From assembly GCA_964625685.1 (NCBI GenBank), contig CAZVBO010000003.1, positions 64,298-128,297 on the forward strand: 64,000 nucleotides of DNA, given 5' to 3'. Position 1 is the first letter of the stretch; each line of letters opens with the position of its first letter. This document shows, in pieces, positions 20,731 to 40,893 of the stretch. The stretch comes from an uncultured Pseudomonadales bacterium. Lineage in GTDB: Bacteria > Patescibacteriota > Microgenomatia > UBA1400 > PJMF01. Made by a program: the position numbers and the translations under genes. The notes below the pieces were generated by a model. The model saw nothing but the letters and a program-made list of their open reading frames with translations. It did no database searches and had not been told where the DNA came from.

Positions 20731-20739
20731 GATTGATTA

Positions 20740-21591
20740 TCATTTCGAATTGTTATTGAAAATCATAATTTCTTCAACAACTCTTCTTTTGCTTGTAAAA
20801 CCAGCAATGCTTCTTCTGACGGAGACCGTTTTAAAATTGAATCCTTCCTTTAGTAAATCAGCTTCTTCGGACTCAGCATAACTTACAACAAACTGGATTC
20901 CCTTTTTATCGAGTCTGTCCATCCATTTCTTGAGGCACATTATATCATTCATTCCGAATATTGACTTGTCGTATTTGTTAAATATTTTTTTTGATCTCAC
21001 ACTAAAAGGAGGATCCATATAAACAAAGTCACCTTTACGAACTTTTTTCAAGGTTTCTTCAAAACCATTTGAGTGCAATTCAGCATTTTTTAACAATTTT
21101 GCCGCAGTGAAGAAAACCTCGTCTGTGGGCATAACACCCTTATCATCACCACAATACGGAACATTAAATTCTCCTTTACTGTTTGTTCTATACAACCCAT
21201 TGAAACAAAATCTGTTTAAGTAGATAAACCTTGCAGCTCTTTTATTCGGAGACAGTTTGTCGGGCTTTAACGCTCGAATTTTATAGTAATCCTCTTTGCT
21301 TTTATTCAGCTTCTTTATCGCTTTTAGGACAGAGCCAGTATCATTTGAAATCTGTCTATAGGTAGTAATTAATTCTTCATTAATGTCACTCAACAACGCT
21401 TTTTTAGGAGCCAGGCTAAAAAATAAACAGGCTGAGCCAACAAATGGTTCAACGTACCTATTAAAGTCATCACTCCAAAATTCAGATAAAACAGGAATGA
21501 GTTGTCGTTTACTTCCAGCCCATCTTAAAAAGGGCTGAGCAACACTAGTGGTTTTATTATTTTTTTTCATATTTAAACACCAACTAGACAC
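20740..21591 (-). CDS. DNA N6-adenine methyltransferase, Dam/T4Dam family
   Basis: N-terminal FLRWAGSKR, motif I EPFVGSACLFF and motif IV DPPF. Start at either 21591 or 21570. Confidence 0.8.
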   Translation of the reverse strand: MSSWCLNMKKNNKTTSVAQPFLRWAGSKRQLIPVLSEFWSDDFNRYVEPFVGSACLFFSLAPKKALLSDINEELITTYRQISNDTGSVLKAIKKLNKSKEDYYKIRALKPDKLSPNKRAARFIYLNRFCFNGLYRTNSKGEFNVPYCGDDKGVMPTDEVFFTAAKLLKNAELHSNGFEETLKKVRKGDFVYMDPPFSVRSKKIFNKYDKSIFGMNDIMCLKKWMDRLDKKGIQFVVSYAESEEADLLKEGFNFKTVSVRRSIAGFTSKRRVVEEIMIFNNNSK

Positions 21592-21807
21592 TATGTTAAT
21601 TCAGTATACGATAGCGGATCACCTTTGGCGATCCTCATTGTTCTTTAGCAACTGTGACCGATTACGACCGCTTTTGTGGGACGTTTGTTACTTGGTTGGA
21701 CTAGTTATACCCTGGAAACAAAGTCTGGAGAATTTTAAGGCATTCATTGAAGACTAATAGCAACAATCTTTAACGTTAACCCAATCAATAGGGGGAAAGG
21801 TATCAAG

Positions 21808-22629
21808 CTATATACTGTGTTTTTCCTCAATGTAATGCCCTGCCAGATTATCATCTCTTGAAGTCCAGGTTATTGTGGATTTTGTCTTAAGATAAAGCTC
21901 GTGGGCCAGGCTAATGAATTTTTTGTGCCGAGTGGACAGTTTTCCTTTTCGAAATTGTTTCTCATGATATTTGCCCCAACCTCTGACAGCCCAATTTGCC
22001 GCAATCTTACTATCAGTCTTAACTTCAGTTGGTTTGCCCTCAGAAAAACCTCTTAAACAGGCAATGATGCCCAATATTTCACCTTCGTTGTTCGAAAAAT
22101 CGCCAATCCACTTTTCCATAAGAATGGTGCCTTCTTCATCACAGACAACGACAATTGTTTGTTGCCGCCCCTTTTGTCCATTGTTTTTTGTACCCGCATC
22201 ACAAAACAATATCTTTTGGGGTGTTGGTTTAGGATTAGCCTTTTTGGAAGTAGGCGTGTTATCAACTGCGCCGGGGATGGAGACAGAGATGTTTGACTTC
22301 AGTTTTCCCTTATTTTGTTGAAGCTCGGCCGCAATACGAAAAGCCACTTCTTTTCCAACTTCTTTGATAAATGCTTTCGAAGGCTTCCAAGTTATATTTA
22401 AGCCAGGCTGATAAGTCGTGGCATGTGTTCCGCATTTTTTGCATTTTACCCACAAACCTTTAGTTAGACTGCTAAGAGTGTAATATCCCTCACAAAGAGT
22501 AGAACAACGCTCACATCTTACTTTTTCGAAAGCATCATTGTTATCTTCTTGGTCAAATAGTCCGGCTGATTTCATATTTTTAGAATTTCTACTCAATTCT
22601 GATGATACAGAAAAACTGATTTCTATCAT
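21808..22629 (-). CDS. Zinc-ribbon plus RNase H-like domain protein
   Basis: N-terminal CERC...CKKC ribbon. C-terminal RNase H-like acidic residues: FCDAG, EGEILGII, KTDSK and RDDNLAGH. Confidence 0.5.
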   Translation of the reverse strand: MIEISFSVSSELSRNSKNMKSAGLFDQEDNNDAFEKVRCERCSTLCEGYYTLSSLTKGLWVKCKKCGTHATTYQPGLNITWKPSKAFIKEVGKEVAFRIAAELQQNKGKLKSNISVSIPGAVDNTPTSKKANPKPTPQKILFCDAGTKNNGQKGRQQTIVVVCDEEGTILMEKWIGDFSNNEGEILGIIACLRGFSEGKPTEVKTDSKIAANWAVRGWGKYHEKQFRKGKLSTRHKKFISLAHELYLKTKSTITWTSRDDNLAGHYIEEKHSI

Positions 22630-22843
22630 AGTTGACCATCATAGAAAATCTTAGTTGAGAGTTTTTGCCGGATTACCGGTATTTTTCACTCAATTTTCTA
22701 CTTGCGATTGCTGACAAACACGAGCCCTGAGCCACTGTGGCCGCTTTTGTGAGGCTTTCCGACCTCACCTGGCAGTTGTTTGGGGGTCTCAACAAATAAA
22801 ACGCCCGTTTGGGGAGTTGTTGGAGAAATTCAAACAAATATTA

Positions 22844-23455
22844 TCAATCACCATGAAGATAAACCACTGCACCGACAATTTTATCATCCATCACGTAAGG
22901 AACAATAACTTCCGCCTCTGAGTAAAGGTCGTTAAGATATGTCATTCTCAGCCCATTAACATTAGCTTGTAAGCCATAAAGCTTGTCCCTCTTACCCAAC
23001 AGGATATCTTTTATCAAAGCTTCTTTGCGCGTCTCAATTGACGTGGTGATAACACCGCCTGAGAAGAACAGCTTTACAATTCGGTCCTGATCCAAGGTAA
23101 TAAAATACATGGGTTGATTATTGGCTAAACTCACATCGCTGAAGTATCCGGGAACGTCTATGGTAGAGGACTCAGATGCGGTAGCTTCTGTTAATAAATC
23201 CAATCTGGATCTAATGTCTGCCACACATTCAGCATTCCCATTGCATTCAACTGCTTCCGGCAGTATCTTGGTAAAAACTTCATCAAAGAACTGTGGATTC
23301 TCCCGCATTAACTCGGAAACCTGAGCGCTTCTGAGTGTATAGACCCCCTTACCACTCTCATACAAACGCCAAGATACGAAGGCAAGTCCAACAAGTACTA
23401 AAACAATAAGAGCAGTAGCAATACCTAAAAGAGGTTTAGTGAAACGTTTTTTCAT
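22844..23455 (-). CDS. Hypothetical membrane-anchored protein (203 aa)
   Basis: N-terminal TM helix. No family recognised. Confidence 0.4.
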   Translation of the reverse strand: MKKRFTKPLLGIATALIVLVLVGLAFVSWRLYESGKGVYTLRSAQVSELMRENPQFFDEVFTKILPEAVECNGNAECVADIRSRLDLLTEATASESSTIDVPGYFSDVSLANNQPMYFITLDQDRIVKLFFSGGVITTSIETRKEALIKDILLGKRDKLYGLQANVNGLRMTYLNDLYSEAEVIVPYVMDDKIVGAVVYLHGD

Positions 23456-23472
23456 ACTGACTTAATTTTAGC

Positions 23473-24465
23473 TTAAAGCTTCTCGATCTCCCAGCCATCA
23501 TTGTCATAAACAATCACCTGGCCACCTTGAGTGATGGTAAGGCTAACGGTTGGGTAGCGGGTGTTTTTGATTGAAGCACACCAGACACCATCGTCTCGTT
23601 GATAGGCAGTTTCAAGAGTCTGGTCCGTGTCTCCACATTGCTCATACTCTTCCGTGTGAGGATCCTCGTAATCAACCCACCTGACAAAGAAGTTGCCAGG
23701 TTTAGTACCTTGAAACTCATAAGTCATCTGAGCGATATCAACACCCAGAATATCCTGATGATCTTTCATAAACTTTTCTGCCACCGGCCGGATGGCTTCG
23801 GCAGTAGTGTAGCGGGGAGTATTGTCATATTCTGGCTGTGGATCAAACCAACGGGAATCATCATCATTAGTACCCCATCTGCGCTCAGCCTCTCCAACTT
23901 CAACAATGTAGTTGGTGTTGGGATCAACAGTAAAGCCAAACCCACCAGCTGAGTAATGTTCTGAAGCAGGACTGGAATAATCGGTCCCAGTATCATCGGG
24001 ATTGCCATTAAAGCGACTACACAAAAACTCAACCGGCATGTCAGAAGATCCTAGGAACTTCTGAATATTAGTCACTGCTTGTTCTCGCTCTTGTGCAGAG
24101 CGGGCAGTCAACAAACAAAACTTCTCTCGGGCTTCTTTATAAACCTGCGTATCCTTATTAGGGTTTTCCTCCATTACTGCCAGCAATTCTGAGATTTCTG
24201 TAGCCTTTTTTAACTCAGAGGATTGATCACCCAAAAGAAGCCTAACTGAGTCATTAAACGACAACTTATCAAAACAACCAGTGAAGTAATTCCATTTATC
24301 ACCCTCCATCTGAGTTGTGATCGGGAACTGCATATGGGTTTGGGCAAGACAATACCGCTCCTTCGCACCTTTGACACGCAGTACACCAATAAACAGAAGT
24401 ATCGAGAGAATAAACAGCACCCCGACAAGAGGTATAAGACGATTTTTAGATTTCTTCATTGTCAT
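23473..24465 (-). CDS. Hypothetical membrane-anchored protein (330 aa)
   Basis: N-terminal TM helix. No family recognised. Confidence 0.4.
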   Translation of the reverse strand: MTMKKSKNRLIPLVGVLFILSILLFIGVLRVKGAKERYCLAQTHMQFPITTQMEGDKWNYFTGCFDKLSFNDSVRLLLGDQSSELKKATEISELLAVMEENPNKDTQVYKEAREKFCLLTARSAQEREQAVTNIQKFLGSSDMPVEFLCSRFNGNPDDTGTDYSSPASEHYSAGGFGFTVDPNTNYIVEVGEAERRWGTNDDDSRWFDPQPEYDNTPRYTTAEAIRPVAEKFMKDHQDILGVDIAQMTYEFQGTKPGNFFVRWVDYEDPHTEEYEQCGDTDQTLETAYQRDDGVWCASIKNTRYPTVSLTITQGGQVIVYDNDGWEIEKL

Positions 24466-24923: not shown

Positions 24924-25205
24924 TTGAATATGTCAGGATTGTTATCGCTAAAATATACAACGTTGTATAAAGCCTTAACCCACCCTATCAGGTTGGAGTT
25001 AGTTAACTTGTTGTTTGAAAAACGTCAGGATGTGGGAAGGCTTGGTGAACAACTCAGCATCAGACAATCAAATGTCAGCCAGCATTTGCAGGTGTTAAGA
25101 AAAAATGGTTTTGTCTTATCTGAAAAAGTGGGCAAACGCAGGATTTACTCTCTAAATCCTGAGTATAAAAAGATAGTAAGCTACTTGATGAAATTTGAGC
25201 CATGA
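24924..25205 (+). CDS. ArsR/SmtB-family metalloregulator
   Basis: LTHPIRLELVNLL...SNVSQHLQVLRKNGFV winged-HTH. Stop overlaps the response-regulator start. Confidence 0.65.
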   Translation: MNMSGLLSLKYTTLYKALTHPIRLELVNLLFEKRQDVGRLGEQLSIRQSNVSQHLQVLRKNGFVLSEKVGKRRIYSLNPEYKKIVSYLMKFEP

Positions 25206-25879
25206 AAATACTAATTATTGAAGACGACCAAATTCTTGCCAAAAACCTGAAAGAGGTGTTAGTAAAGGACGGCTTTGCAGTCGACGTCGCCTTCTCTAAG
25301 GATGGTGGCTTGGTGGAAATAGAAGTCAATGAGTATGACTGTGTAGTGCTCGATATAAATTTGCCTGATGGCAGCGGCTTTGATTTGTTGAAAGAACTTC
25401 GTCAAAGTGAAAATCAAACACCAGTAATTATCGTCACTGCCCGTGGTGAGATTGAAGATAGAGTAAAAGGACTTAATCTAGGCGCCGATGATTATGTACC
25501 TAAACCGATTGATTCCAATGAACTTATTGCCCGCATCAGAGCAGTTATTCGCCGTAATAGTCAAAGTGCCTTGCCAGTGATTACGATAGGTGATCTGGTG
25601 GTAAAACCAGCAGATCACCTTGCAAAAGTTGGAAACAACACCTTAGATTTAACCGCCAAAGAGTTTGCGGTTCTTGAGTACCTCGCCCAACACAGCGGAC
25701 AAGCCGTGACCCGCACCATGCTGATGGAGCATATCTGGGGTAGTGATTTTGATACTTTCTCCAACGTCATTGATGTCTATATCCGAAATTTAAGAAGAAA
25801 ATTAGAAAAACACTCTAAAGACAAACTAATCACTACAATCCGTGGTAAAGGCTATATTTTGGGCAAACATGAGAAATAA
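25202..25879 (+). CDS. OmpR-family response regulator (receiver domain plus winged-helix output)
   Basis: MKILIIEDD...DLNLPDGSGFDLLKELR receiver motifs. C-terminal trans_reg_C-like ...TRTMLMEHIWG.... Confidence 0.85.
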   Translation: MKILIIEDDQILAKNLKEVLVKDGFAVDVAFSKDGGLVEIEVNEYDCVVLDINLPDGSGFDLLKELRQSENQTPVIIVTARGEIEDRVKGLNLGADDYVPKPIDSNELIARIRAVIRRNSQSALPVITIGDLVVKPADHLAKVGNNTLDLTAKEFAVLEYLAQHSGQAVTRTMLMEHIWGSDFDTFSNVIDVYIRNLRRKLEKHSKDKLITTIRGKGYILGKHEK

Positions 25880-27230
25880 ACTACGACACATAACCAGAAC
25901 ACTCAGAGGTAAATTGTCTTTGTGGTATTTGACCTCTGTGGCTCTGATTATCGCCGTCTTTCTAACTGCTGCCGGCATCTTGTTTTGGGTCACTCTGCAA
26001 GACCAAATTGACCATCATGTCCATATTGCCGTTAACGAGGCCAGTGAAATTGTCCAAAATTACCAGGGTGAAGAAAGAGACGAACTTCTGAAAAATCTGG
26101 TCAGCGCACAGGGGATGACCATCATTGTTTTATCTCCTGACGGTGCACCTGTTCTAGAAACCAATAGCCCAGATGTTGCCTTGGTTACTGAACATCAGTT
26201 GCAGAAAATCCTGACCTCCAGTAGCCTCTATGAATCAGCTCCGGTTCACTTCACCGAAAGCAATATCCGTTTTGCAGCCATGCCGGTACAGATCAGTGCC
26301 GGTAAGGGTATTCTGGCGGTGGGTTATTCCACCCAGGTGCTGTATGCCACCTTTAGCAAAATGTTGTTGATTGTCGCCGGCATCGTAGTTCTCCTGGTTT
26401 TACCTATCACCTTTCTTGGTTACCGTCTTCTTAAGAAACAGCTTCAACCCTTAGAAAGTATCGCCAGTCAAGCCGAAAAAATCAGTGACAGTTCTGCTCT
26501 TACTAAACGCATAAGTACCAATTCAGCCACAGAAGAATTGGTTGCCATTCAGACTGCCCTTAATTCCATGCTGGCACAGCTACAAAAAATCTTCTCCAGC
26601 GAACGTCAGTTTTTCTCTGATGCAGCTCACACGCTCAAAACTCCTCTGGCGGTACTACGATCACAAATAGAAACAAGTGACATCACCCAAAAAATGAGAC
26701 AGGAATTGCTATCCACTATTGATACCACTAGTGACACCATTGGCGACTTGCTTTTTCTCTCTAAGGTCGGCGGTAAATCACAGAGGATAGAGAAACTTTC
26801 ACTCACTCAACTTGTGCAAGACTTAGCGGAGTTAACTACAACTTTAGGAGAAGACAAAGGATTGAAGGTTACCTCAGATATTCAGGACAATGTTCAATTT
26901 AAGGCTGACAAAAAACTACTCCAGCGTGCTTTGGCAAACATCGCTCACAACGCAGTTTCATATAATCGTCCTAAAGGGACTATCAATATCAGTCTAAAGA
27001 AACAAACCGGAAAAGTTATTATTAAGATCTCTGATACCGGAATGGGCATCAAAAAAAGCGATCAGACAAAACTCTTCACCCGTTTTTTCAGGGGAGAAAA
27101 CGCCGTAAGTAAAGGCTCAGGGCTGGGGCTGGCAATTGCCAAGGCAGTTGTTGAGGATCTGGGCGGGAAAATAGAGCTTAAATCCGTGGTTAACAAAGGG
27201 ACATCTGTCTTAATTACCCTTCCGGCATAA
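25869..27230 (+). CDS. Sensor histidine kinase (two TM helices, HisKA, HATPase_c)
   Basis: H-box FFSDAAHTLKTPL, N-box HNAVSYN, and G-boxes DTGMGI and GSGLGLAIAK. Overlaps the response-regulator stop. Confidence 0.8.
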   Translation: MRNKLRHITRTLRGKLSLWYLTSVALIIAVFLTAAGILFWVTLQDQIDHHVHIAVNEASEIVQNYQGEERDELLKNLVSAQGMTIIVLSPDGAPVLETNSPDVALVTEHQLQKILTSSSLYESAPVHFTESNIRFAAMPVQISAGKGILAVGYSTQVLYATFSKMLLIVAGIVVLLVLPITFLGYRLLKKQLQPLESIASQAEKISDSSALTKRISTNSATEELVAIQTALNSMLAQLQKIFSSERQFFSDAAHTLKTPLAVLRSQIETSDITQKMRQELLSTIDTTSDTIGDLLFLSKVGGKSQRIEKLSLTQLVQDLAELTTTLGEDKGLKVTSDIQDNVQFKADKKLLQRALANIAHNAVSYNRPKGTINISLKKQTGKVIIKISDTGMGIKKSDQTKLFTRFFRGENAVSKGSGLGLAIAKAVVEDLGGKIELKSVVNKGTSVLITLPA

Positions 27231-27314: not shown

Positions 27315-28310
27315 ATGCAAGATAATCCAACACCAAGTATTAAAAAGCGATCCAAAACTGCTAAGCTTCAGCAATTGGTTGAAAAGACAGGTTTCTGGAA
27401 GGGTATGGCGCTTATCCTCTTTGCCGTTATTGTTCTGACTCAGGTTTTCGAAGTCAGCATAACTCCCAAACTCTCTTTCCTGAAAGGATTTTCCAAAAAA
27501 CAAAATATCGCGGTAGAGCCTGGTAGTACGACAACCTTCAAAGTTGATACAGCTTCGCTCACCAGCCAGGTGCTTCCAGAAGAAGGTGTGACCCTACCTA
27601 TCACCTGGGGAGATCTGGGCCAGCGGATGGTTGCCGATGGGGTAATTGATGAACAAAAGTTCAGAGCCTTGTTTGAAGGAGGGTTAACCAATACCGAAGA
27701 ACAAATGCTTTCCGGCAATAGTAACCAGCCAGTTGTACTAACTCAGCAAAACAGTCGTTATTTATTGGATCTTTTGTGGGCATTTGGCCTAGCTAACAAA
27801 AACGATATTTTGGAAAACGGCGAAATGACTGATGAAAAATACGGAGGTGATGCGAGTAAATTTGCGGCTACTGGCGGATGGTCATTAGCCAAAGGGGCAG
27901 GCTTTGATCACTACAGCAAACATGCTTATGTGACATTGAGCGATGAACAACAAGCATTAGTGGACAAAGTCTCCCGGGGTATTTACAGGCCATGTTGTGG
28001 TAACTCGACTCATTTCCCTGACTGTAATCATGGCATGGCCATGTTGGGACTGTTGGAGCTGATGGCCAAAAATGGCGCCAATGAACAACAAATGTATGAT
28101 GTGGCTCTCAAAGTTAACTCCTTCTGGTTCCCACAAACTTACATTGATCTGGCTACCTACTTCAAAGAACAAGGTCAAGATTGGGATCAGGTAGATGCCA
28201 AAACCGCTCTTAGCGCTGAGTACTCCAGTGCCCAAGGTTATCAACAGACCCGTCAGAAAATTCAGAGTCTTCCTAAGCCCCAACAAGGCGGTGGTGGCTG
28301 CGGAGCATAA
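27315..28310 (+). CDS. Hypothetical membrane-anchored protein with a Cys/His-rich motif (CCGNSTHFPDCNH) and a C-terminal GGGGCGA tail
   Basis: N-terminal TM helix and a conserved-looking Cys cluster. First gene of a plus-strand operon downstream of the two-component system. Confidence 0.4.
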   Translation: MQDNPTPSIKKRSKTAKLQQLVEKTGFWKGMALILFAVIVLTQVFEVSITPKLSFLKGFSKKQNIAVEPGSTTTFKVDTASLTSQVLPEEGVTLPITWGDLGQRMVADGVIDEQKFRALFEGGLTNTEEQMLSGNSNQPVVLTQQNSRYLLDLLWAFGLANKNDILENGEMTDEKYGGDASKFAATGGWSLAKGAGFDHYSKHAYVTLSDEQQALVDKVSRGIYRPCCGNSTHFPDCNHGMAMLGLLELMAKNGANEQQMYDVALKVNSFWFPQTYIDLATYFKEQGQDWDQVDAKTALSAEYSSAQGYQQTRQKIQSLPKPQQGGGGCGA

Positions 28311-28315
28311 ACACC

Positions 28316-29110
28316 ATGAAGCAGAAACTCAAATTCTCACCACGCAAACTCTTCTGGCAGGTAGCCGCACTTCTGGGGTTAGTTATCCTCTTTGCCAGCC
28401 CGCTGACCTCAGCCGCTCAGATGCTGGGAATGAAACACCAAATCAATGTTCCTTCCGCAGTCTCGGTGGTTGAAGCCAAAGAAATTTATCCAATGTTTAC
28501 CTGCCCCTGCTGTGGTCAGCCACTCAATAAAGAAGAACCTTGCTGCGGAGCCATGACCCAGATGATTGACTTTATCGATCAGAAGGTTACGACAGACGCT
28601 AACAAAGATGAAATTGTTCTGGCCACGGCTCAGGAGTTCGGGTTGGAGAGACTCACAGAGGAATCAGACAGGCTGGCTCTGCGCGAACAACTACTAGCCA
28701 ATGCTCCTGAGAATGCTCCCAGAATTGCCACCAATGAAACCAAACAGGATTTAGGTATCGTCAGGCAGGCAAACGGTATAGTGACAACTGAGTTTATTAT
28801 CAAAAACGAGGGTAAAAGCGATCTTGTTATCAACAAGCTTTCATCTTCCTGTGGCTGCACCTCAGCCAGTTTAGTTTATCAGGAGCAAGAAGGTCCACGC
28901 TTCTATATGGCCGGACACGGACATGATGAGCCTGATGCCAGCTGGCAGGTAGCCATTGCTCCAGGTGATGAAGCCACTATCAAAGTTTACTATGACCCGA
29001 CTGTTCATCCTGACTTGACCGGACCGGTCACCCGCACGGTCTCAGTCCACTCTAACGACCCAGTTGATTTTGAAACCAAGTTAACAATTACCTTAGAACA
29101 GGAGAAATAA
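28316..29110 (+). CDS. DUF1573-type CxC protein with an N-terminal signal peptide and a Cys-rich CPCCG...PCCG segment
   Basis: C-terminal LSSSCGCTSASL resembles the DUF1573 CxC core. N-terminal FTCPCCGQPLNKEEPCCGAM. Confidence 0.45.
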   Translation: MKQKLKFSPRKLFWQVAALLGLVILFASPLTSAAQMLGMKHQINVPSAVSVVEAKEIYPMFTCPCCGQPLNKEEPCCGAMTQMIDFIDQKVTTDANKDEIVLATAQEFGLERLTEESDRLALREQLLANAPENAPRIATNETKQDLGIVRQANGIVTTEFIIKNEGKSDLVINKLSSSCGCTSASLVYQEQEGPRFYMAGHGHDEPDASWQVAIAPGDEATIKVYYDPTVHPDLTGPVTRTVSVHSNDPVDFETKLTITLEQEK

Positions 29111-29111
29111 T

Positions 29112-29657
29112 ATGAATCACGATTGCTGCAATCCTAAAGATAAAAAACATAACACCAAGAAGGGTCCAGATTCCTTTTTAATTGGAATCATTGTAGTCAC
29201 ACTTCTAATCCTAGGTGGAGCCGTTTACTTTGGCTCCAAAATTGGTGCTACTTCTCAGGTGACGGCCGATTCTCAAGTCAGCATGATGGTGGGAGAAAAT
29301 AGATACGATTGGGGCACTATCGATATCAACGGTGGCACGGTTAGCAAATCTTTTGCTATCGAAAATAAAGGTTCTACCCCACTTAAACTTTACGATATTA
29401 AAACTTCCTGCATGTGTACTACTGCCCAGCTAAAAACAGCGGACCAGACTTCTAAAAAATTTGGCATGCACGAAAAGAACTCCAGCGTCTTTGAGGTCAA
29501 ACCGGGAGAAACAGCCGAACTAGTTGTCGAATTTGATCCGTTGTTCCACGGCCCTAGTGGAGTCGGTCCCATCAGCCGAACCGTGACCATGAATACCAAC
29601 TCAGAGGACAATCCAACTCTATCATTTCAGTTAGCAGCCAATGTGGTTAAAAAATAA
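29112..29657 (+). CDS. DUF1573-type CxC protein (membrane-anchored)
   Basis: IKTSCMCTTAQL core. N-terminal TM helix. Confidence 0.45.
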   Translation: MNHDCCNPKDKKHNTKKGPDSFLIGIIVVTLLILGGAVYFGSKIGATSQVTADSQVSMMVGENRYDWGTIDINGGTVSKSFAIENKGSTPLKLYDIKTSCMCTTAQLKTADQTSKKFGMHEKNSSVFEVKPGETAELVVEFDPLFHGPSGVGPISRTVTMNTNSEDNPTLSFQLAANVVKK

Positions 29658-29664
29658 GGCAAGT

Positions 29665-30426
29665 ATGAATAAAACAAAACTAGTACTGAGTATTCTTGTG
29701 GCAATTATCCTAGCCGGATGGGGAATCCGATGGGTGATGAGTCAAAACCAACAATCCAACAAAACTTCAACACTGACTCAGGAAACAATAAAGGGAGCAA
29801 AAGTTTCTCTCGTTAGCCCACAGGAATTTGCAAAGTTGGCTCAAGCCGAAAATGCTTTTGTGGTTGATGTTCACACGCCGGAGCAAACTCATATTCCTGG
29901 CACAGATGCATTCATTCCAGATACAGAAATTAGTGCCAGAGCTAGTGAATTGCCTCAAGACAAATCCACCCCAATTTTAGTCTATTGTCGCTCCGGCAGT
30001 ATGAGTCAGCGAGCTAGCCAAGAAATAGCCGATTTAGGTTATACCAATGTTTATGATCTAAAAGGTGGCACTAATGCCTACAAAGAACAACAGGTTTCCG
30101 TTCAGCTCTGGCCGAATAAGCAGGAACTAGGCACCGTCATTTATGGTGATGTAGCTACTACCAGCTTTACCCTAACCAACTACAGCCCATTGCCTCTTAA
30201 AATTACCCGTGTTTCTACTTCGTGCGGTTGTACTAAAGCCAGTGTAGACAAGGAAGAATTGGGAGCTTATGAAAGCACAACAGTCAATGTCTCCTTTGAT
30301 CCGGCGGTGCATAAAGATGACACTGACTTGGGCGAGCTAACCAGAACTATTTATGTGGAAACTGACAACCCTAATTATTCTGATTTAGAAACTATAATCA
30401 CAGCCAACGTGATTAAGAAAAATTAA
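29665..30426 (+). CDS. Rhodanese domain fused to a DUF1573-type CxC domain
   Basis: Rhodanese active-site loop VYCRSGSMSQRAS. C-terminal VSTSCGCTKASV. N-terminal TM anchor. Confidence 0.55.
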   Translation: MNKTKLVLSILVAIILAGWGIRWVMSQNQQSNKTSTLTQETIKGAKVSLVSPQEFAKLAQAENAFVVDVHTPEQTHIPGTDAFIPDTEISARASELPQDKSTPILVYCRSGSMSQRASQEIADLGYTNVYDLKGGTNAYKEQQVSVQLWPNKQELGTVIYGDVATTSFTLTNYSPLPLKITRVSTSCGCTKASVDKEELGAYESTTVNVSFDPAVHKDDTDLGELTRTIYVETDNPNYSDLETIITANVIKKN

Positions 30427-30427
30427 G

Positions 30428-31273
30428 ATGGACACCTTATTTCAACTCTCCCTATTAGCTTCATTTATTGCCGGTATGGTGGCTCTGTTTGCTCCCTGCT
30501 GTATTACTTTCCTGCTTCCGGCTTACTTTGCCAACGTTTTCAAAGAGAAAAAGCGGGTTGTCTTAATGACTTTTATTTATTCTTTAGGAATATTTACCGT
30601 TATGTTGCCGGTAGTATTGGGCGCCAAAGCCCTGAGTCAGATGTTCTTCAACCTGCATGATAAAACCTATATCATCGGTGGTTTATTTTTAATCTTTGTC
30701 GGCTTCGGATCATTACTTGGTTTCAAGTTACCCATGCCGCGCTTTAGTTTCACCAAACAAGCTGACGATCCACTTTCAACCTACATTCTGGGAATCATCT
30801 CCGGTATTACTAGCGCCTGCTGCGCACCAGTGTTGATCGGAGTAGTTGCCTTATCAACTCTCAGTCCAACCATGGCCCAGTCGTTACTAGTTGGTTTCTT
30901 TTACGTACTAGGGATGGTCACACCTCTTTATCTAGCCAGTCTATTTATTGATAAAAGAAACTTTCTTGCTAAACCTATCTTTCGTAAACCTTTTAGAGAA
31001 GTAACATTCCTGGGCAAAACTCATATGATTACTGTCTCCAATATGGTCTCGTTTGTAATGTTTGTGGGCATGGGGCTTCTAACTATCTTCCTATCATTAT
31101 CAGGAAAATTGGCTATGAACAGGAGTGAAGAAAGTGTGACTCAAGCGATTCAAAATGTGGCGGTTTCAGTGACCACCTTTGTCCAAAAGATACCAGGGCT
31201 GGATATTATCTTTACCTTGGTAGCCTTCTGGTTACTTTACAAATTCCTAAAGTACATCAATCGGGAGAAATAA
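30428..31273 (+). CDS. CcdA/DsbD-like integral membrane thiol-disulfide transfer protein (two CC pairs in TM helices)
   Basis: LFAPCCITFLLP and ITSACCAPVLIG. Polytopic. Confidence 0.45.
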   Translation: MDTLFQLSLLASFIAGMVALFAPCCITFLLPAYFANVFKEKKRVVLMTFIYSLGIFTVMLPVVLGAKALSQMFFNLHDKTYIIGGLFLIFVGFGSLLGFKLPMPRFSFTKQADDPLSTYILGIISGITSACCAPVLIGVVALSTLSPTMAQSLLVGFFYVLGMVTPLYLASLFIDKRNFLAKPIFRKPFREVTFLGKTHMITVSNMVSFVMFVGMGLLTIFLSLSGKLAMNRSEESVTQAIQNVAVSVTTFVQKIPGLDIIFTLVAFWLLYKFLKYINREK

Positions 31274-31277
31274 TCTC

Positions 31278-31553
31278 TTATTTCGAGGCAATTAGGTTAT
31301 AAACAAACACAAACGAGTAAACTCCCAAGAAACTGATTGCGGCCGCTTCAATCATTCCGCCAACCAATCCCATAAAGCTTAGATTGAAAAACATATGCCA
31401 GGAAGCCATCGCTTCAGCTGCTGATACATAAAGTCCCATCTTGGCTAGTACCCAAAGCAATAGCATTACTAAAGCTGACCAAACTGCCAAAGCAGTTGCT
31501 GCGGGCTGAGCATTAAGCTTCCCTCTTCTGTTATGCATATTTTGCATGTTCAC
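31278..31553 (-). CDS. Small membrane protein (91 aa)
   Basis: Two hydrophobic helices. Confidence 0.3.
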   Translation of the reverse strand: MNMQNMHNRRGKLNAQPAATALAVWSALVMLLLWVLAKMGLYVSAAEAMASWHMFFNLSFMGLVGGMIEAAAISFLGVYSFVFVYNLIASK

Positions 31554-31565
31554 CTCCTTTTTAAT

Positions 31566-32018
31566 TTATAATTGCCAACTAAAATCCTCAGTTTCATTAT
31601 CAACCCCTTCAAGAGTCAGTGTCAATTGTTTTGGGTCTCCGTTAAGGGGAGTAAAAATCAATTGTCCTGAAAGGTGATGCCCACTGTTTCCACCGGTCCA
31701 TGTCGCGGGCTTATAAGTATTGCCACTATCATCCGCTAACATTGCGATTTGGGTATAGTCATAATTTAACTCTACCGAGTGAGTATTCATCGACAATTCA
31801 AAAACAATATCCTTCCCTGGTTGTATCGAAACCGGCTTTACCTCAACTTCTACTGCACCCATGGTTTTGGATTGCGATGATATTCCTGAAGCTTGCACAT
31901 TTGTTTCTATTGTCGGGGAAGTCGTTGCAGAAGCTTCCTGTTTCTGTTTTGCCGTTATTCCAAAAACAACCACTCCCGCAAGAACAAGCAGGATGATAAA
32001 AAATATTTTTGAATTCAT
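31566..32018 (-). CDS. Secreted/anchored hypothetical protein (150 aa)
   Basis: N-terminal signal/TM. No family recognised. Confidence 0.35.
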   Translation of the reverse strand: MNSKIFFIILLVLAGVVVFGITAKQKQEASATTSPTIETNVQASGISSQSKTMGAVEVEVKPVSIQPGKDIVFELSMNTHSVELNYDYTQIAMLADDSGNTYKPATWTGGNSGHHLSGQLIFTPLNGDPKQLTLTLEGVDNETEDFSWQL

Positions 32019-32527
32019 AACACCTCCTTTTGTTTATGAGAAATCGAGTTAAAGATAACTGCTAACTTAGGACGGCCAGTAATAAACCAGAGCATCATGC
32101 CGACCCTTATCAGATTAGCCAGAACGCCAAAAATCAAAAGTTGCTCTTGATACTCGCTCAAAAATAAGGCAGCGGCAGATAAACCCAATATGGGCAAAAG
32201 ATCAACAGCATGATGAGCACAGCAGGCCACCATGGCCATGCCAGAAACGGCAGTACTAGTACCAGCTGCCATTTTAGAATCTTTCTTCTCCTGAAGATTA
32301 AAATGAATGCCTTTTCGCATCAGCCAGAATAACCCCATCTGAACTCCAAAACCGACAATCAACAGGCTCATCCAAGGTTGAAATAGTACAAATTGAGTTA
32401 GGGGATGATTAGGATCTCCGGTTACAACAAAAAGAAGCAGGTAATAAAAAGCACTTAATCCCAGTAACCCTAAAAAGAATCCCTGAATAAAGATTGACCA
32501 AGGTCTGCTCGAAGCATTACTTAACAT
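32015..32527 (-). CDS. Membrane protein with a CCAHH motif (possible metal ligand)
   Basis: Polytopic. AMVACCAHHAV. Stop/start overlap with the neighbouring gene. Confidence 0.35.
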   Translation of the reverse strand: MLSNASSRPWSIFIQGFFLGLLGLSAFYYLLLFVVTGDPNHPLTQFVLFQPWMSLLIVGFGVQMGLFWLMRKGIHFNLQEKKDSKMAAGTSTAVSGMAMVACCAHHAVDLLPILGLSAAALFLSEYQEQLLIFGVLANLIRVGMMLWFITGRPKLAVIFNSISHKQKEVL

Positions 32528-32567: not shown

Positions 32568-34706
32568 TTAAACCTCTAACCTTACCTTACGGAGTGTCAT
32601 GGCATTTATCACCACAATTACCGAAGACATACTCATCAATAGTGCTCCGACTGCAGGGGTCAGTCTAAAACCAAAAGGAATAAATAATCCTGCTGCGGCC
32701 GGAATAGCCAGGACGTTATATCCCAGCGCCCAGAAAAGATTTTGCAGCATCTTGGAATACACTTTGCGAGATAAAATAATTAAGCGAACAATATGCTGAG
32801 GGTTTGATTGGGTCAGAACAATATCCCCAGCTTCCACCGCTACATCAGTGCCTGCACCAATCGCCACACCAGCATTAGCCTGAGTCAGAGCAGGGGCATC
32901 GTTAACTCCGTCTCCAGCCATGACTACTACATTACCTTTATCTTGTAACTCCCTGATGTGCTTATATTTGTCTTCAGGTAATACTTCGGCAAAGACCGTA
33001 TCAATTCCTAATTGCTTTGCTATCGGGGTAGCCGCCGCCTGACTATCGCCGGTGAGCATCGCTACTTTTACTCCCAATTTATGAAGCTCTTCCACCGCCT
33101 GTTTGGATTCCGGCTTAACCTGATCACTGAGAGCAATTACTCCCAGAACTTTGTCCTTATCCGCCACAAAAACAGGTGTCTTCCCTTCTGAGGAAAGCTC
33201 GTCATAAACTGTAGCAACTTCTTTATTCCAAACTTTCCTCTCTTCCATTAGACGTTTATTACCCAAGAAATATTGTTGCCCACTATAAATGCCTTCCATA
33301 CCCTTGCCGGCCAGATTTTTAATTTTTGTTGCCTCAGAATAATTTACTTTCTTTTCTTTCAGATGCGAAACAATCGCCATCCCGATAACATGAGACGAAT
33401 GAGACTCAATGCTACCAGCGATTTGTAACAGTTTCTTTTCATCTCCCGAGAGCGTATGTATACCCGTCACTCCGAATTCTCCTTTAGTTAAAGTGCCGGT
33501 TTTATCAAAAACCACATAATCGGCATTTTTAACTACCTCAATCTTGCCCATGTCTTTAATAAAGACTCCGTTTTTGACTGCCAGTCGGGTAGCAATGGTT
33601 GAAACGGTGGGGATAGCCAACCCCAAAGCATGAGGACAGGCAATCACCAACACAGTAATAGCTAAGGTAGCCGCAAAGACAAACGGCTGACCCACAACCA
33701 CAGCCCAAATAAACAAAGATAAGATAGAAACACTCAAGGCAACAAATGTTAACCATTTAGCAGCCCGGTCGGCTAGTTTTTGGGCGGAAGGCTTGGTTTG
33801 TTTGGCTTCGGAAATTAGATTCTGAATCTGGCCAATGGTGGACGATTCGCCAACGCGCATCAGTCTAACTTCTACAGAGCCATCAATACTGATGGCTCCG
33901 GCTACTATTTCCATACCAGTCTCTTTTTCAACAGGTTTTGATTCACCGGTAATATGAGCCTCGTTAAAATTTCCATTACCTTTAACAATCTCACCATCGG
34001 CTGGGACTTTCTCCCCAGGTTTCACAATCACCACATCACCTTCTTTTAGTGAGGCGAGTTCTACTTCTTTAACACCATTCTTAGTTTTCAAATGGGCTTC
34101 TTTCGGCAATAACTTGGCAACTTCCTTTAAGGCGTCTCCAGCCGCTGTTGAAGACTTGGCTTCCAGGAAATGACCAAACAACAGTACCCAGATCAGAGTA
34201 GAAATTTCCAGATAGAACTCGGTGCTAATGGCAGGAATAAAGGTCGAAGCGGCAGAGAAAAGATAGCCGGCACCGACTCCCAAGGAAACAAGCGTCATCA
34301 TCCCGTACTGCTTCATCTGAATTTCCATCTTGGCGTGCTCAAAGAAAACCAAACCAAAATAGAAGATGACGGTAGCAATACCAAACTCCAGCAAAGAACG
34401 CAGAGCAAAGTCAGGTACTCCCAGAAACTTAACCGCCGGTTCGGAGAAAATGGCTAGAGGGACAAGCAAAGCAGTGACTATGAAGAATCGCTTCAAAAAG
34501 TCGGCTGCCGCTTCCGGACTAGCCATCATGCTGGCATGGTCATGCTCAGCGTGCCCTGAATCCATGTCACTTTTCTTGACTAAATCCATGCCACCACACT
34601 TGGGACACTTACCCGGCTTATCTTCTTTGATTTCAGGATGCATAGGGCAGGTGTAGTAGTCCCTGCCACCTTCGTGCTGGTGATTATGATCCATATTGTG
34701 TTTCAT
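32568..34706 (-). CDS. Copper-translocating P1B-type ATPase, CopB-like (CPH motif) with a His-rich N-terminus and a CPMHP...CPKCGM heavy-metal-binding domain
   Basis: MKHNMDHNHQHEGG...YYTCPMHPE...CPKCGG. TM motif IACPHALGLA, phosphorylation site DKTGTLT, hinge GDGVNDAPAL. Confidence 0.85.
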   Translation of the reverse strand: MKHNMDHNHQHEGGRDYYTCPMHPEIKEDKPGKCPKCGGMDLVKKSDMDSGHAEHDHASMMASPEAAADFLKRFFIVTALLVPLAIFSEPAVKFLGVPDFALRSLLEFGIATVIFYFGLVFFEHAKMEIQMKQYGMMTLVSLGVGAGYLFSAASTFIPAISTEFYLEISTLIWVLLFGHFLEAKSSTAAGDALKEVAKLLPKEAHLKTKNGVKEVELASLKEGDVVIVKPGEKVPADGEIVKGNGNFNEAHITGESKPVEKETGMEIVAGAISIDGSVEVRLMRVGESSTIGQIQNLISEAKQTKPSAQKLADRAAKWLTFVALSVSILSLFIWAVVVGQPFVFAATLAITVLVIACPHALGLAIPTVSTIATRLAVKNGVFIKDMGKIEVVKNADYVVFDKTGTLTKGEFGVTGIHTLSGDEKKLLQIAGSIESHSSHVIGMAIVSHLKEKKVNYSEATKIKNLAGKGMEGIYSGQQYFLGNKRLMEERKVWNKEVATVYDELSSEGKTPVFVADKDKVLGVIALSDQVKPESKQAVEELHKLGVKVAMLTGDSQAAATPIAKQLGIDTVFAEVLPEDKYKHIRELQDKGNVVVMAGDGVNDAPALTQANAGVAIGAGTDVAVEAGDIVLTQSNPQHIVRLIILSRKVYSKMLQNLFWALGYNVLAIPAAAGLFIPFGFRLTPAVGALLMSMSSVIVVINAMTLRKVRLEV

Positions 34707-34712
34707 TTTTAT

Positions 34713-35303
34713 TTACTTTTTATGCGCTCTTCGAAGGAAAAAGTACGTACCGGAAGCCAAGAAAGCGATTGCCATAATCCAAGTTACTGTCCCCAAAATT
34801 CCATAGCCACCGTAACCCATCATCGAACCAAAGCCCATCATTCCGGTTGGGGCATTAAAATTACGATTATTGTTATAGCCCATCATGTCTCCACCCATCA
34901 TCATTCCTGGTCCATAGTTGGTATTACCGTATCCTAAATAAGCTTGCCCCATATTGATATGCATCTGCCTCAAAGACTCTGAACCTTCGCCACCCATCAT
35001 TCGGTCCATAACTTCGTGGGCTTCACCTGGATGCTGGAGTTCCATGACCGCATCACCCAAACGTTCCCAATCATCGTCACTAACTTTGGAAAGATCAAGT
35101 TCCTGAACTGTCGACACATTCTGAGATTCAAGAATACCCTGCAACACGACTTCCACTGACTCAGCGTGACCTTCTTTCGTCTCCACCTCAGTTTCCTCGT
35201 TATCTAAACCCATCATTGAACCCATTTGAGCATGAGCCAAACGAGTGTTTAGAAAAAACAAACTGCTAAAAATTACAAAACTGGCAAGAATTATTTTCTT
35301 CAT
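34713..35303 (-). CDS. Secreted Met/Gly-rich protein with a C-terminal TM anchor (putative Cu-binding, low complexity)
   Basis: Signal peptide. MMG/GY repeats. Paralogous to 36209-36890. Confidence 0.4.
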   Translation of the reverse strand: MKKIILASFVIFSSLFFLNTRLAHAQMGSMMGLDNEETEVETKEGHAESVEVVLQGILESQNVSTVQELDLSKVSDDDWERLGDAVMELQHPGEAHEVMDRMMGGEGSESLRQMHINMGQAYLGYGNTNYGPGMMMGGDMMGYNNNRNFNAPTGMMGFGSMMGYGGYGILGTVTWIMAIAFLASGTYFFLRRAHKK

Positions 35304-35992: not shown

Positions 35993-36202
35993 CTATTGAG
36001 TAGTCTCATCCTGTTTAGGAGGGCATTTAGAATCAGCATAAGAGCAAAAAACACAACATTCTCCTTCTTTGGGCTTGAGGACTTCATCGCAATTAGTGCA
36101 CTTGTAAAAATGCTGGCAGGCATCAGTGGGCATCTGTTCTTCTTTTTCGAAACCACACTTTGGACAGGTAATGGTGGCTTTTGTTTTTATTTTTTTATCC
36201 AT
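35993..36202 (-). CDS. Small Cys-rich protein (9 Cys in 69 aa), putative metal-binding
   Basis: CPKCG...C..C..C..CC.FC...C. Confidence 0.4.
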   Translation of the reverse strand: MDKKIKTKATITCPKCGFEKEEQMPTDACQHFYKCTNCDEVLKPKEGECCVFCSYADSKCPPKQDETTQ

Positions 36203-36208
36203 AGATTT

Positions 36209-36890
36209 TTATGTTAAATCTTTCTTCTTTTTTTCAAACTCTTTTTTTTCAATTTCTCCCTTGGCGTAGCGTTCTTTGAGGATTTCAAGAGCAGATTTAT
36301 CTTGTGTTTGGCTTTTTCCCTGATTAGCTATCCATTTGATCAAGGCGATAATGCCTACAATAATCAGCCCCCAGAACAAGATCATAAAGACCCAGCCAAA
36401 ACCCCAACCAAGTAAACCCATTGGGTTAGTACCGAAATTTCCCATCATATAATTTCCTCCTCCTCCCATCATACCCATCATTGGTATCATTCCGCCACCT
36501 ATCATTGTTTGAGGTATGGGAGCATCAGCTTCACACCCGCTCATCCGTTTACCCATCCCAATGTGCATTTGATCTGCACCCTCCTCACCCATCATTCGCT
36601 CCATCATTGAATCCATTTCCTCATGAGATTCACCAGCCATCAAACCCATAAAGTACATGCCCAGATTATGAAAATCATCATCTGACAAATTCTCACACCC
36701 TATCTCTTGTGCCTGTAACTTGTCCCAAATTCCTTTTCCCTCGGCCTCTCCCTCGGCGGTATGGCCATCGCTTGACTGCTCACCGGAATTATTTACTCCC
36801 ATCATATTCATTATTCCCTGAGCGCCTACAAAAGAGGGAGAGAATAAACCGAAAAGAGTGATTAAAATCAAACTGATAAGAACTTGTTTC
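36209..36890 (-). CDS. Secreted Met/Gly-rich protein with a C-terminal TM and SHOCT-like tail
   Basis: Start taken at MKQVLISL. MMG repeats. TM WVFMILFWGLIIVGIIALI, then ...LKERYAKGEIEKKEFEKKKKDL. Confidence 0.4.
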
Positions 36891-36896
36891 ATGGTT

Positions 36897-37279
36897 TTAC
36901 TTAGATTTATCAATAATGCTTCTGATAGTCTTATCAACTTCCTCAGACAAACTTCCTAACTTGGCTTCAGGGAAAAATTGCGGCAACACAATCGGTCTCA
37001 TGCCTGAAATGAATGTTTTGCCGTCTTTGACATAAACATTGATTTTGCAGGGGAGACAAAGGCCAATTCTAATATCAGCCTGCAGTACGGTATAAGCACT
37101 TTTGGCATTGCAAATCTCGATGATTTTAAACGGTCCGATTTCAAAACCTTTGGCACCGATTGTTTTTTGGACATCATGGATATGTATACCTTAAATCCCG
37201 CTTTAGCAGTTTCTTCCTCCACAGCAGAAATTGCCCTGTTAAATGTTTTCTTGGTTTTGACTGTATAATCAAATTCCAT
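36897..37279 (-). pseudogene. DUF302 family gene disrupted by a frameshift
   Basis: Frame A gives MEFDYTVKTKKTFNRAISAVEEETAKAGFKVYI.... Frame B continues HDVQKTIGAKGFEIGPFKIIEICNAKSAYTVLQ...LPCKINVYVKDGKTFISGMRP.... Both parts match the intact paralog at 35318-35716. The junction lies near 37190-37200. Confidence 0.45.
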
Positions 37280-38159: not shown

Positions 38160-38307
38160 ACAACAATTGTAACAGCCAAGCTCTTGGTGTTCACTCTTGA
38201 TTCCTCTAGCCCCTCACAACTTCTTTCTGTAAAAATAGAAAACTATGTCTTTTGAAGATTTGCGTTTTCCTAAAATAAAGAATGGTGAGGTGAGTCACCA
38301 TCTCTCT

Positions 38308-38961: not shown

Positions 38962-39002
38962 GGATTTTAAATAACTTTCCTCCGAAATTTATTTTTCTTT
39001 AA

Positions 39003-40883: not shown

Positions 40884-40893
40884 AATAGTTATT

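Follow-up and report, generated by a model that had tools for sequence, protein, structure and literature searches.

A five-gene operon of CPR bacteria that probably handles copper and protects thiols outside the cell membrane

The window analysed here is a stretch of 64,000 nucleotides (nt) of contig CAZVBO010000003.1 (assembly GCA_964625685.1), deposited under the name of an uncultured Pseudomonadales bacterium and placed by its GTDB lineage in the Patescibacteriota, the candidate phyla radiation (CPR). Positions 27315 to 31273 of the window carry five co-directional open reading frames (ORFs), g1 to g5, which probably form an undescribed copper-handling and thiol-protecting system outside the cell membrane, judging from gene order, domain content and residue conservation. 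The five-gene arrangement is far beyond chance; dozens of independent genomes and contigs from metagenomes show it again. A preliminary description, made from the sequence alone, had listed the same five genes, for which the ORF list gives identical coordinates, and had proposed a relay of thiols, persulfides or copper outside the membrane that matched no characterised pathway. That proposal fits the evidence given below, including the fusions of g1 relatives to HMA, cupredoxin, rhodanese and DsbC_N domains. Literature searches returned no paper on g1, on the function of DUF1573 or on this cassette. The five genes are as follows.

g1, 27315-28310, + strand: 331 amino acids (aa); membrane-anchored hub protein with four conserved Cys, an all-alpha model and no known family
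g2, 28316-29110, + strand: 264 aa; secreted or anchored protein with N-terminal CPCCG...PCCG and a DUF1573 domain (CGC); probably accessory
g3, 29112-29657, + strand: 181 aa; transmembrane (TM)-anchored DUF1573 protein with an immunoglobulin (Ig)-like sandwich and a CxC-Met-His cluster; probable core partner of g1
g4, 29641-30426, + strand: TM-anchored rhodanese::DUF1573 fusion, likely start 29665; probably accessory
g5, 30428-31273, + strand: 281 aa; membrane protein of the CcdA superfamily with four Cys arranged as two vicinal pairs; probably core

The operon and its conservation

The successive frames are separated by 5, 1, -17 (or +7) and 1 nt, and an AGGAG ribosome-binding site lies 8 nt upstream of the g1 start. 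Scans for promoters and terminators gave site counts below those of shuffled controls and were uninformative. Hydropathy analysis found one N-terminal hydrophobic segment in each of g1, g2, g3 and g4 and seven segments in g5. Together with the basic N-termini of g1 to g4, this fits the extracytoplasmic location that had been predicted for the proteins. Every motif quoted in the preliminary description is present in the g1 to g5 sequences.

Synteny was followed in approximately 160 related loci, among them genome loci anchored on g1 and metagenome loci anchored on g4. The g1 set consists of 80 genome loci fetched via g1 plus the window itself, 81 in all, with neighbours counted within 5 kb of g1, and the counts are of loci that were chosen through g1 or g4 and not de-replicated. 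A DUF1573 gene is near g1 in 55 of the 81 loci, a CcdA-like gene of any type in 51, and both together in 44. The CcdA-like gene is of the g5 type, with two Cys-Cys pairs (CC/CC), in 31 loci, and in 21 a single-Cys type (PC...PC) occupies the same position. P1B ATPases accompany g1 in 48 loci and CsoR-like repressors in 21; lower counts were obtained for rhodanese (14/81), CopG/DUF411 (10/81) and the g2-type domain (9/81). TlpA/ResA-like redoxins occur in seven loci, adjoining a g5-type CcdA in six of them, and all seven lack a DUF1573 gene within 5 kb of g1, a pattern which suggests that the redoxin has displaced the DUF1573 gene there.

In the closest loci the gene order is response regulator, histidine kinase, g1, (g2), g3, (g4), g5, where g2 is absent from L006, L009, L010 and L012, and g4 from L009, L012 and L013. 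More distant loci, with g1 identities of 45-58%, usually show the order small TM protein, DUF1573, CcdA-like, g1, P1B ATPase; small proteins with a C-terminal CC sometimes precede g1, and a CsoR-like repressor is often present. Co-occurrence of DUF1573-rhodanese fusions with ccdA, a check put forward in the preliminary description, was seen in the g4-anchored metagenome scan, where g5 lies directly downstream in 37 of the 52 loci with enough sequence. In the same scan g1 is found in 32 of 39 loci and g3 in 34 of 39. The genes are thus strongly co-conserved with each other, and also with copper pumps and sensors. The comparison points to a core made up of g1, the DUF1573 CxC protein g3 and the CcdA-like g5, with g2 and g4 as accessories. 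The preliminary description had recognised neither g1 as the hub nor the accessory status of g2 and g4, which is evident from the counts given above.

A different set of genes precedes g1 in L021, L023, L033, L037, L044, L051, L054, L070 and L079, namely CopG/DUF411, a TM protein with an HCPLC motif and a small CC-ending protein. The small proteins of this alternative cassette belong to no Pfam family, and its four-TM CxxC member is the one that P0254 has fused to g1.

Copper-type neighbours and occurrence outside the CPR

The ATPases within 5 kb of g1 were sorted by a rough motif test of the fourth TM segment (TM4), which gave CPH in 21, CPC in 16 and CPD in 9. The Zn/Cd signature HE-x-[GS]-T was found in none of them by the same rough test. 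In locus L082, an island 97% identical also contains genes for a multicopper oxidase, for a CsoR-like repressor and for a YHS protein. The neighbours are overwhelmingly of copper type, and from them we infer that copper is the metal.

Searches with tblastn detected g1 homologues, 34-37% identical and annotated as hypothetical proteins, on ten plasmids of Burkholderia and Paraburkholderia, where they lie in metal islands regulated by CueR- or MerR-type proteins. The B. contaminans island runs from cueR through genes for a Cys/His-rich and a Met-rich protein, DUF2933, a CcdA of the g5 type, a redoxin and a thioredoxin to ICMT, a peroxiredoxin, a P1B ATPase and finally the g1 homologue; DUF411, DsbD, CcdA, TlpA and SCO genes are nearby. 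The annotated start of the g5-type CcdA (L170, 2591-3604) is an internal Met, which loses TM1 and its PCC motif. Read from the upstream Met, the protein contains both ALFAPCC and SSCCAPVL. The g1 homologues of B. thailandensis and P. fungorum are likewise in metal islands.

Two of the plasmid homologues (L170, 8857-9807, and L169, 8977-9930) start with a twin-arginine-like signal, RRRFL, and continue for about 18 residues after the conserved tail Cys. The signal hints that these Burkholderia proteins may be exported folded or loaded with a cofactor. A class I S-adenosylmethionine (SAM) methyltransferase flanks g1 in all three Burkholderia contexts. It was considered as a partner shared with the window and rejected, as the window and Burkholderia enzymes are dissimilar and the Burkholderia type is absent from the CPR loci.

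The B. thailandensis island also carries, at 13037-16978 of L169, an extracytoplasmic function (ECF) sigma factor with DUF1109 and, after it, DUF2282, DUF692, a protein with a DNA-binding domain, and DoxX. This gene set resembles the Gig cluster of Cupriavidus, which is induced by gold and copper. PMC10304878 names the Gig system.

Six of the loci (L001, L002, L013, L020, L023 and L069) have cassettes of CPR type labelled as uncultured Pseudomonadales or Gammaproteobacteria, all of them metagenome-assembled genomes from third-party co-assemblies. These labels are probably those of mislabelled bins and not real occurrences in the named groups.

The g1 protein

The preliminary description had spoken of DUF1573-type proteins in the operon, and this applies to g2, g3 and g4 (see below); g1 is not a DUF1573 protein. 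It bears CCGNSTHFPDCNH at residues 227-239 and ends in GGGGCGA. No match to g1 was obtained in Pfam (even at E <=10), in NCBIfam, or among PDB sequences or folds. Its AlphaFold2 (AF2) model is all-alpha, with a predicted local distance difference test (pLDDT) value above 90 over about 156 residues (roughly 80-160 and 200-320), and a Foldseek search of the model against the PDB found no match (best E 2.9). Membership of the PCYCGC family (PF13798), or of any other, was rejected on the same searches. In an alignment of 116 diverse representatives with identities of 27-53%, only C227, C228, D236, C237 and C329 are invariant. The last of these is in the low-confidence, Gly-rich C-terminal tail GGGGCG(A/V).

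The family is present in at least 546 species genomes, and a full profile search gave 668 clusters at 50% identity. The relatives are almost wholly from Patescibacteria/CPR, among them Levybacteria, Woesebacteria, Roizmanbacteria, WWE3 and Parcubacteria, which places the source of the window in the CPR as well; a search for relatives in phages found none.

Fusions of g1 relatives to other domains are varied. One relative (P0248) is joined to an HMA domain and carries the source name 'copper chaperone CopZ', another (P0382) is joined to a cupredoxin domain, and three of the 116 representatives are fused to rhodanese. In P0246 the partner is the DsbC N-terminal dimerisation domain (DsbC_N), which normally precedes a thioredoxin domain reduced by DsbD. 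Membrane partners include a four-TM CxxC protein (P0254), a domain of about 200 aa with a GCxxCG motif (at least 15 cases) and, in P0257, an N-terminal domain 31% identical (E 3e-19) to the product of the window gene tm170 (32015-32527). HMA::DsbD_2 is also among the Cys-motif membrane proteins linked or fused to g1. The invariant cysteines and the range of these partners mark g1 as the conserved hub of the cassette.

The DUF1573 proteins

All three remaining anchored proteins pass the PF07610 gathering score of 26.1 bits (g2, 56.3, 3.3e-15; g3, 50.7, 1.9e-13; g4, 56.4, 3.1e-15), and the S-C-x-C-T motif reads SCGCT in g2, SCMCT in g3 and SCGCT in g4. The rhodanese domain of g4 scores 49.8 bits against a PF00581 gathering score of 22.2 (5.1e-13). 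The domain assignments made beforehand for these genes therefore stand; that of g5 to PF02683 falls below the gathering score, but g5 matches a CcdA structure (see below), so the assignments hold as a whole.

In g3 the model has a pLDDT of 86 and shows a PapD/ASH-like Ig sandwich, the top Foldseek matches including 2qsv, a P. gingivalis protein with no assigned function. Residues C100, C102, M119 and H146 are conserved in 51 relatives, as the TSC-x-CT motif, the Met of F-G-M and the His of D-P-x-x-H-G-P. Residues 1-21 of g3 (window 29112-29180) form an N-terminal tail that is predicted to be cytoplasmic and bears M-x-H-D-C-C. The Cys pair C5/C6 in this tail is invariant in 28 close relatives and absent from distant DUF1573 partners, which suggests that there may be a second, inward-facing site for metal or thiols.

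The CPCCG...PCCG cysteines of g2 are at 63, 65, 66, 76 and 77, and its CPCC, CC and CGC motifs are kept in eight of nine orthologues. Nine orthologous fusions of the g4 type all retain Cys116 (YCRSGSMS), the CGC motif and His224. Translation of g4 probably begins at Met9 (29665), the Met with which all nine orthologues start and which gene callers choose. In metagenome loci L137-L144 rhodanese::DUF1573 fusions share 57-59% identity with g4, and the one gene that follows them encodes a methyltransferase with a distant likeness to the product of the window gene at 38308-38961. Neither g1 nor g5 is present there, and proteins of the g4 type therefore also have a second context.

An apparent DUF1573::CcdA fusion in L042 spans a masked run of N and was rejected as an assembly artefact. 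In L025, L065 and L066 the long DUF1573 proteins proved to be fusions with beta-propellers. In some DUF1573 proteins selenocysteine replaces the first Cys of the CxC motif (PMC9312934, PMC13188914).

The CcdA variant g5

Against DsbD_TM (PF02683) g5 scores 21.9 bits, below the gathering score of 27.1, and many relatives 80-90% identical to it carry a precomputed PF02683 match. A phmmer comparison with the Thermus CcdA structure 5vkv gave E 9e-7. The CC pairs of g5 are at 24-25 and 131-132. Of these, C24 in TM1 and C131 in TM4 align with both canonical redox cysteines of 5vkv, and C25 and C132 are added vicinal cysteines. The CCAP motif of TM4 is kept in 30 of 30 g5-type relatives, and PCC of TM1 in the 28 that include this segment, the other two ORFs being truncated at the N-terminus. 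The PF02683 match spans residues 8-172. At its C-terminus g5 is longer than CcdA by about 60 residues, which add a TM segment, and the hydropathy scan gives seven segments against the six of a CcdA core. No match to MerT (PF02411) was found for g5 at E <=0.01 or for the tm170 product at E <=10.

Proteins 77-100% identical to g5 occur across several CPR lineages, and a g5-identical sequence is on 18 contigs. Such near-identity across lineages indicates that the island probably moves horizontally. In the preliminary description the relay was driven by CcdA-type electron transfer; the canonical cysteines of g5 would allow this, and the added vicinal ones allow metal passage equally well.

The metal island around the operon

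The genes flanking the operon are listed below. They include the copper ATPase, ArsR and histidine-kinase/response-regulator genes that had been placed beside it in the preliminary description, all of which are present.

24924-25205, + strand: ArsR/SmtB regulator, 93 aa; PF01022 2.5e-10, NF033788 72.8 bits against a cutoff of 55
25202-25879, + strand: OmpR-type response regulator; best NCBIfam match TIGR01387, 215 bits against a cutoff of 279, nearest to CopR/CusR/SilR
25842-27230, + strand: sensor histidine kinase; best NCBIfam match TIGR01386, 188 bits against a cutoff of 292, nearest to heavy-metal sensor kinases
31278-31553, - strand: small two-TM protein, 91 aa, convergent with g5; very weak DUF5676 resemblance
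31566-32018, - strand: anchored beta-rich protein, 150 aa, DUF5643-like; PF18705 3.4e-6, below cutoff
32015-32527, - strand: tm170, four-TM protein with an intramembrane CCAHH motif
32568-34706, - strand: CopB-type P1B ATPase with a His-rich N-terminus, HMBD (PF19335), CPH and MSMSS; TIGR01511 564 bits against 397
34713-35303, - strand: secreted protein of 196 aa, rich in Met (20 residues); related proteins recur among the g1 loci

The arsR stop overlaps the start of the response regulator gene, and the ArsR gene is kept upstream of the cassette in L001-L003, L091, L105 and L115. In close loci the response regulator gene is directly upstream of the g1 cassette. The histidine kinase has TM segments at 33-51 and 174-192 with an outward loop containing HHVH, and some gene callers choose a later start that gives 436 aa. 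On the other side, the 91-aa two-TM protein adjoins the cassette in L001, L002 and L081-L088. Of the 81 loci, 16 have the DUF5643-like gene within 5 kb of g1, always beside the tm170 family, and 18 have tm170 itself within this distance. The fusion of a tm170-like domain to g1 in P0257 argues that tm170 belongs functionally with the operon, whose system thus reaches past 27315-31273. BLAST found no similarity between tm170 and the GCxxCG membrane domain of the g1 fusions, so the two were not equated. The CPH-type ATPase is 1.3 kb downstream of g5 on the opposite strand.

A second Met-rich protein, secreted or anchored and with a SHOCT domain, is encoded at 36209-36937 (- strand). Both it and the protein at 34713-35303 have MMGG-type repeats, and B. 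contaminans has a similar protein in its island. By their appearance they bind Cu(I). Between them, at 35993-36202 (- strand), is a 69-aa protein with ten Cys in zinc-ribbon-like pairs, adjoining a YHS-domain protein and DUF302. Further on (37269-40940, - strand) is a second metal module, with a cation diffusion facilitator (CDF) transporter, a class I SAM methyltransferase and a P1B ATPase, the latter with an unusual APC motif in TM4 and passing the Cd-family model TIGR01512 (Cd/Zn-family pump). Upstream of the island, at 19714-24465 (- strand), are genes for a protein of 338 aa, for a Dam-like DNA methyltransferase (with PF02086 in the identical locus L081) and for an RNase H-like protein, together with two conserved genes whose products of 203 and 330 aa have no family. 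In L081 and L083 this gene group accompanies the island, and it may represent the edge of a mobile element.

Proposed function and alternatives

The reading preferred here is a copper-stress module on the outer face of the cytoplasmic membrane, in which reductant supplied by a CcdA-type protein would maintain Cu(I)-binding thiols; we give it a probability of roughly 0.5. A CopRS-like two-component system would switch the module on, and the adjacent CopB-type ATPase would expel Cu(I). The anchored Cys proteins might then capture the Cu(I), repair copper-oxidised thiols, or both. In g1 the RPCC...DCNHG site could be served by the Cys on the flexible Gly-rich tail, and the Ig-fold DUF1573 domains of g2, g3 and g4 would contribute a CxC-His(-Met) cluster. 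Reducing equivalents from cytoplasmic thioredoxin could cross the membrane through g5 and thereby keep these cysteines reduced or recycle them. The g4 rhodanese and the g2 CPCCG motif are pictured as optional add-ons for persulfide or extra metal-thiolate chemistry, and the divergent tm170, with its intramembrane CCAHH, as part of the same network. The gene structure, the domains, the invariant residues, the co-conservation, the fusions and the copper-type neighbours are observed, and from them we infer the topology, the identity of the metal, and both the direction and the very existence of electron flow.

Several observations weigh against this module. The PF02683 score of g5 is below threshold, and its conserved extra vicinal cysteines are unneeded for a thiol-disulfide relay and resemble metal-binding CC pairs. 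A DsbD-alpha-like or copper-chaperone fold for DUF1573 was rejected, the 50 top Foldseek matches in the PDB being of PapD/ASH/HYDIN type only. The two-component pair has heavy-metal subfamilies as its best match, with both proteins below cutoff, and the window ArsR has no Cys. In P. fungorum g1 is near merA/merB, which would also allow mercury or other thiophilic metals. The locus counts carry the selection and redundancy noted with them above.

The main rival is that g5 is a transporter on a CcdA scaffold whose four intramembrane Cys bind a thiophilic metal ion, for example Cu(I), Ag(I) or Hg(II), while g1 and the DUF1573 proteins bind the ion on the outer face and hand it on in the manner of MerT/MerP. 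A redox relay requires just one Cys per helix, and yet both vicinal pairs are conserved in the g5-type relatives counted above and in the Burkholderia copy. Other CC or CxxC membrane proteins are tied to g1 (tm170 with CCAHH, the GCxxCG domain, HMA::DsbD_2), the Cys-x-Cys, Met and His of DUF1573 are a plausible Cu(I) ligand set, and the merA/merB genes near g1 in P. fungorum would suit such a system. Set against this are the 21 loci in which a single-Cys CcdA-like protein takes the g5 position, the pairing of g5-type genes with TlpA-like redoxins, which are classic CcdA clients, and the lack of a Pfam MerT match. Moreover, an importer beside exporters would be illogical unless a cytoplasmic detoxifying enzyme were at hand, and none is found in the window. 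Metal passage is therefore regarded as unlikely, at a fraction of the weight given to the copper-stress module.

A second rival starts from the rhodanese, which would make a persulfide that is passed to the Cys of DUF1573 and g1, for detoxification of sulfide or polysulfide or for precipitation of copper sulfide outside the cell. The catalytic Cys of this domain is invariant in the g4 orthologues, and rhodanese is fused both to DUF1573, in g4, and to g1 in the three representatives mentioned. Regulators of the ArsR and CsoR families include persulfide sensors such as BigR. The window ArsR does give a weak BigR match, but it lacks Cys, so that BigR-style sensing would be impossible; DsrE-family genes are present in the P. 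fungorum island. The rhodanese is found in only 14 of the 81 g1 loci, g4 is missing from the close cassettes L009 and L012, no sulfide:quinone oxidoreductase or persulfide dioxygenase was seen, and copper pumps and copper proteins dominate among the neighbours. Because rhodanese is usually absent, a persulfide relay is possible as a side function and not as the core function, for which we consider it improbable.

That the genes serve housekeeping envelope folding or cytochrome-c maturation of the CcdA/Dsb kind, and are in a metal island by chance, is very improbable: databases often name g5 relatives 'cytochrome c biogenesis protein CcdA' and some g1 loci have DsbA-like and VKOR-like genes, but the link to P1B ATPase, CsoR, CopG, HMA and cupredoxin is systematic and cross-phylum, cytochrome c and heme-lyase genes are absent from the window, and the cassette is patchy and near-identical across lineages, as for accessory genes that move horizontally.

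Comparison with known systems

The copper-stress module would work like Scs or CcdA-TlpA-Sco, the two precedents for a reductant relay linked to copper, and is a member of neither, because the client folds differ, the g5 variant is below the Pfam threshold and g1 is without a family. Scs is a copper-induced envelope system in which a protein of the DsbD/CcdA superfamily reduces outer-face Cys proteins that also bind Cu(I) (PMC10907172). A likeness to it is the g1 relative that carries the DsbC-type N-terminal dimerisation domain. The clients here, however, are the Ig-like DUF1573 CxC proteins and an all-alpha four-Cys domain and not thioredoxin folds, and g5 is a bare CcdA core with extra vicinal Cys, lacking the periplasmic domains of ScsB. 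No thioredoxin-fold protein of the ScsC type was found in 27315-31273 by Pfam or NCBIfam. The host is a CPR bacterium, whereas Scs occurs in Salmonella, Proteus and Caulobacter.

In the second system TlpA reduces the copper-binding Cys of Sco and CoxB (PMC7558416). As in CcdA-ResA and CcdA-TlpA-Sco, the redox Cys of g5 are in place, the partners are anchored by a single TM segment on the outer face, and in some loci a TlpA-like redoxin stands in for DUF1573. Unlike in CcdA-TlpA-Sco, genes for cytochrome c, Sco and oxidase are absent from the window, g5 has a C-terminal extension and a score below the PF02683 gathering score, and the apparent client g1 is family-less.

MerT/MerP combine a vicinal Cys-Cys in a TM helix with an outer-face, metal-binding Cys partner, and g5 likewise has a vicinal Cys-Cys in a TM helix and an outer-face Cys partner. 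It differs in matching DsbD_TM/CcdA and not MerT; the window has no MerA, and the nearby pumps are of copper type.

CopG (DUF411) is a periplasmic Cys-rich protein (CxCC plus Met) with a genetic link to copper exporters (PMC7558416). It is found with g1 in the 10 loci noted above and in the Burkholderia islands, and the CPCCG of g2 is of similar flavour; CopG has a thioredoxin-like fold, however, and no window protein matches PF04214.

The Tso and OS_HP2 systems share with the operon a rhodanese, a DsbD/CcdA-type domain, an ArsR regulator (TsoR) and a DUF1573 CxC protein (the 'UGC' selenoprotein). They differ in that there is no selenocysteine here and the domains are on separate proteins, TsoB being a rhodanese/DsbD-fusion selenoprotein. 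The NCBIfam scores are far under the cutoffs (TsoB NF045694, 18.9 against 805 bits; TsoR NF045707, 29.3 against 115; OS_HP2 NF041425, 40-46 against 100). To our knowledge, the Tso and OS_HP2 systems are themselves uncharacterised.

Biological meaning

We place the operon within a known kind, the copper-linked extracytoplasmic thiol systems, as a variant in which two orphan components may have genuinely new roles. A bolder version of this, which we hold tentatively and think somewhat less probable than the copper-stress module itself, is that g1 represents a new class of outer-face four-Cys domain with an unseen fold, forming a metal or redox centre with a swinging C-terminal Cys arm, and that DUF1573 is a new Ig-fold CxC carrier, which a four-Cys variant of CcdA supplies with electrons or Cu(I). 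The two would make up an unrecognised Cu(I) detoxification pathway, widespread in the CPR and mobile to Burkholderia plasmids. The four-Cys form of CcdA also raises the question of whether metals, and not electrons alone, can pass through this scaffold.

DUF1573 is a large orphan family of Bacteroidota, Planctomycetota and CPR that includes selenoprotein forms, and the g1 family, with thousands of members, is without any annotation. Through the operon and its relatives, both families are connected with copper export and with membrane proteins of the CcdA type. The presence of g1 and g5-type genes in CueR-linked plasmid islands of culturable Burkholderia makes genetics and biochemistry feasible. 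CPR bacteria have tiny genomes and are not culturable alone, and an accessory module that they so often keep and exchange is informative about the metal stress they meet. The bolder version given above, if true, would provide the first function for two large orphan families.

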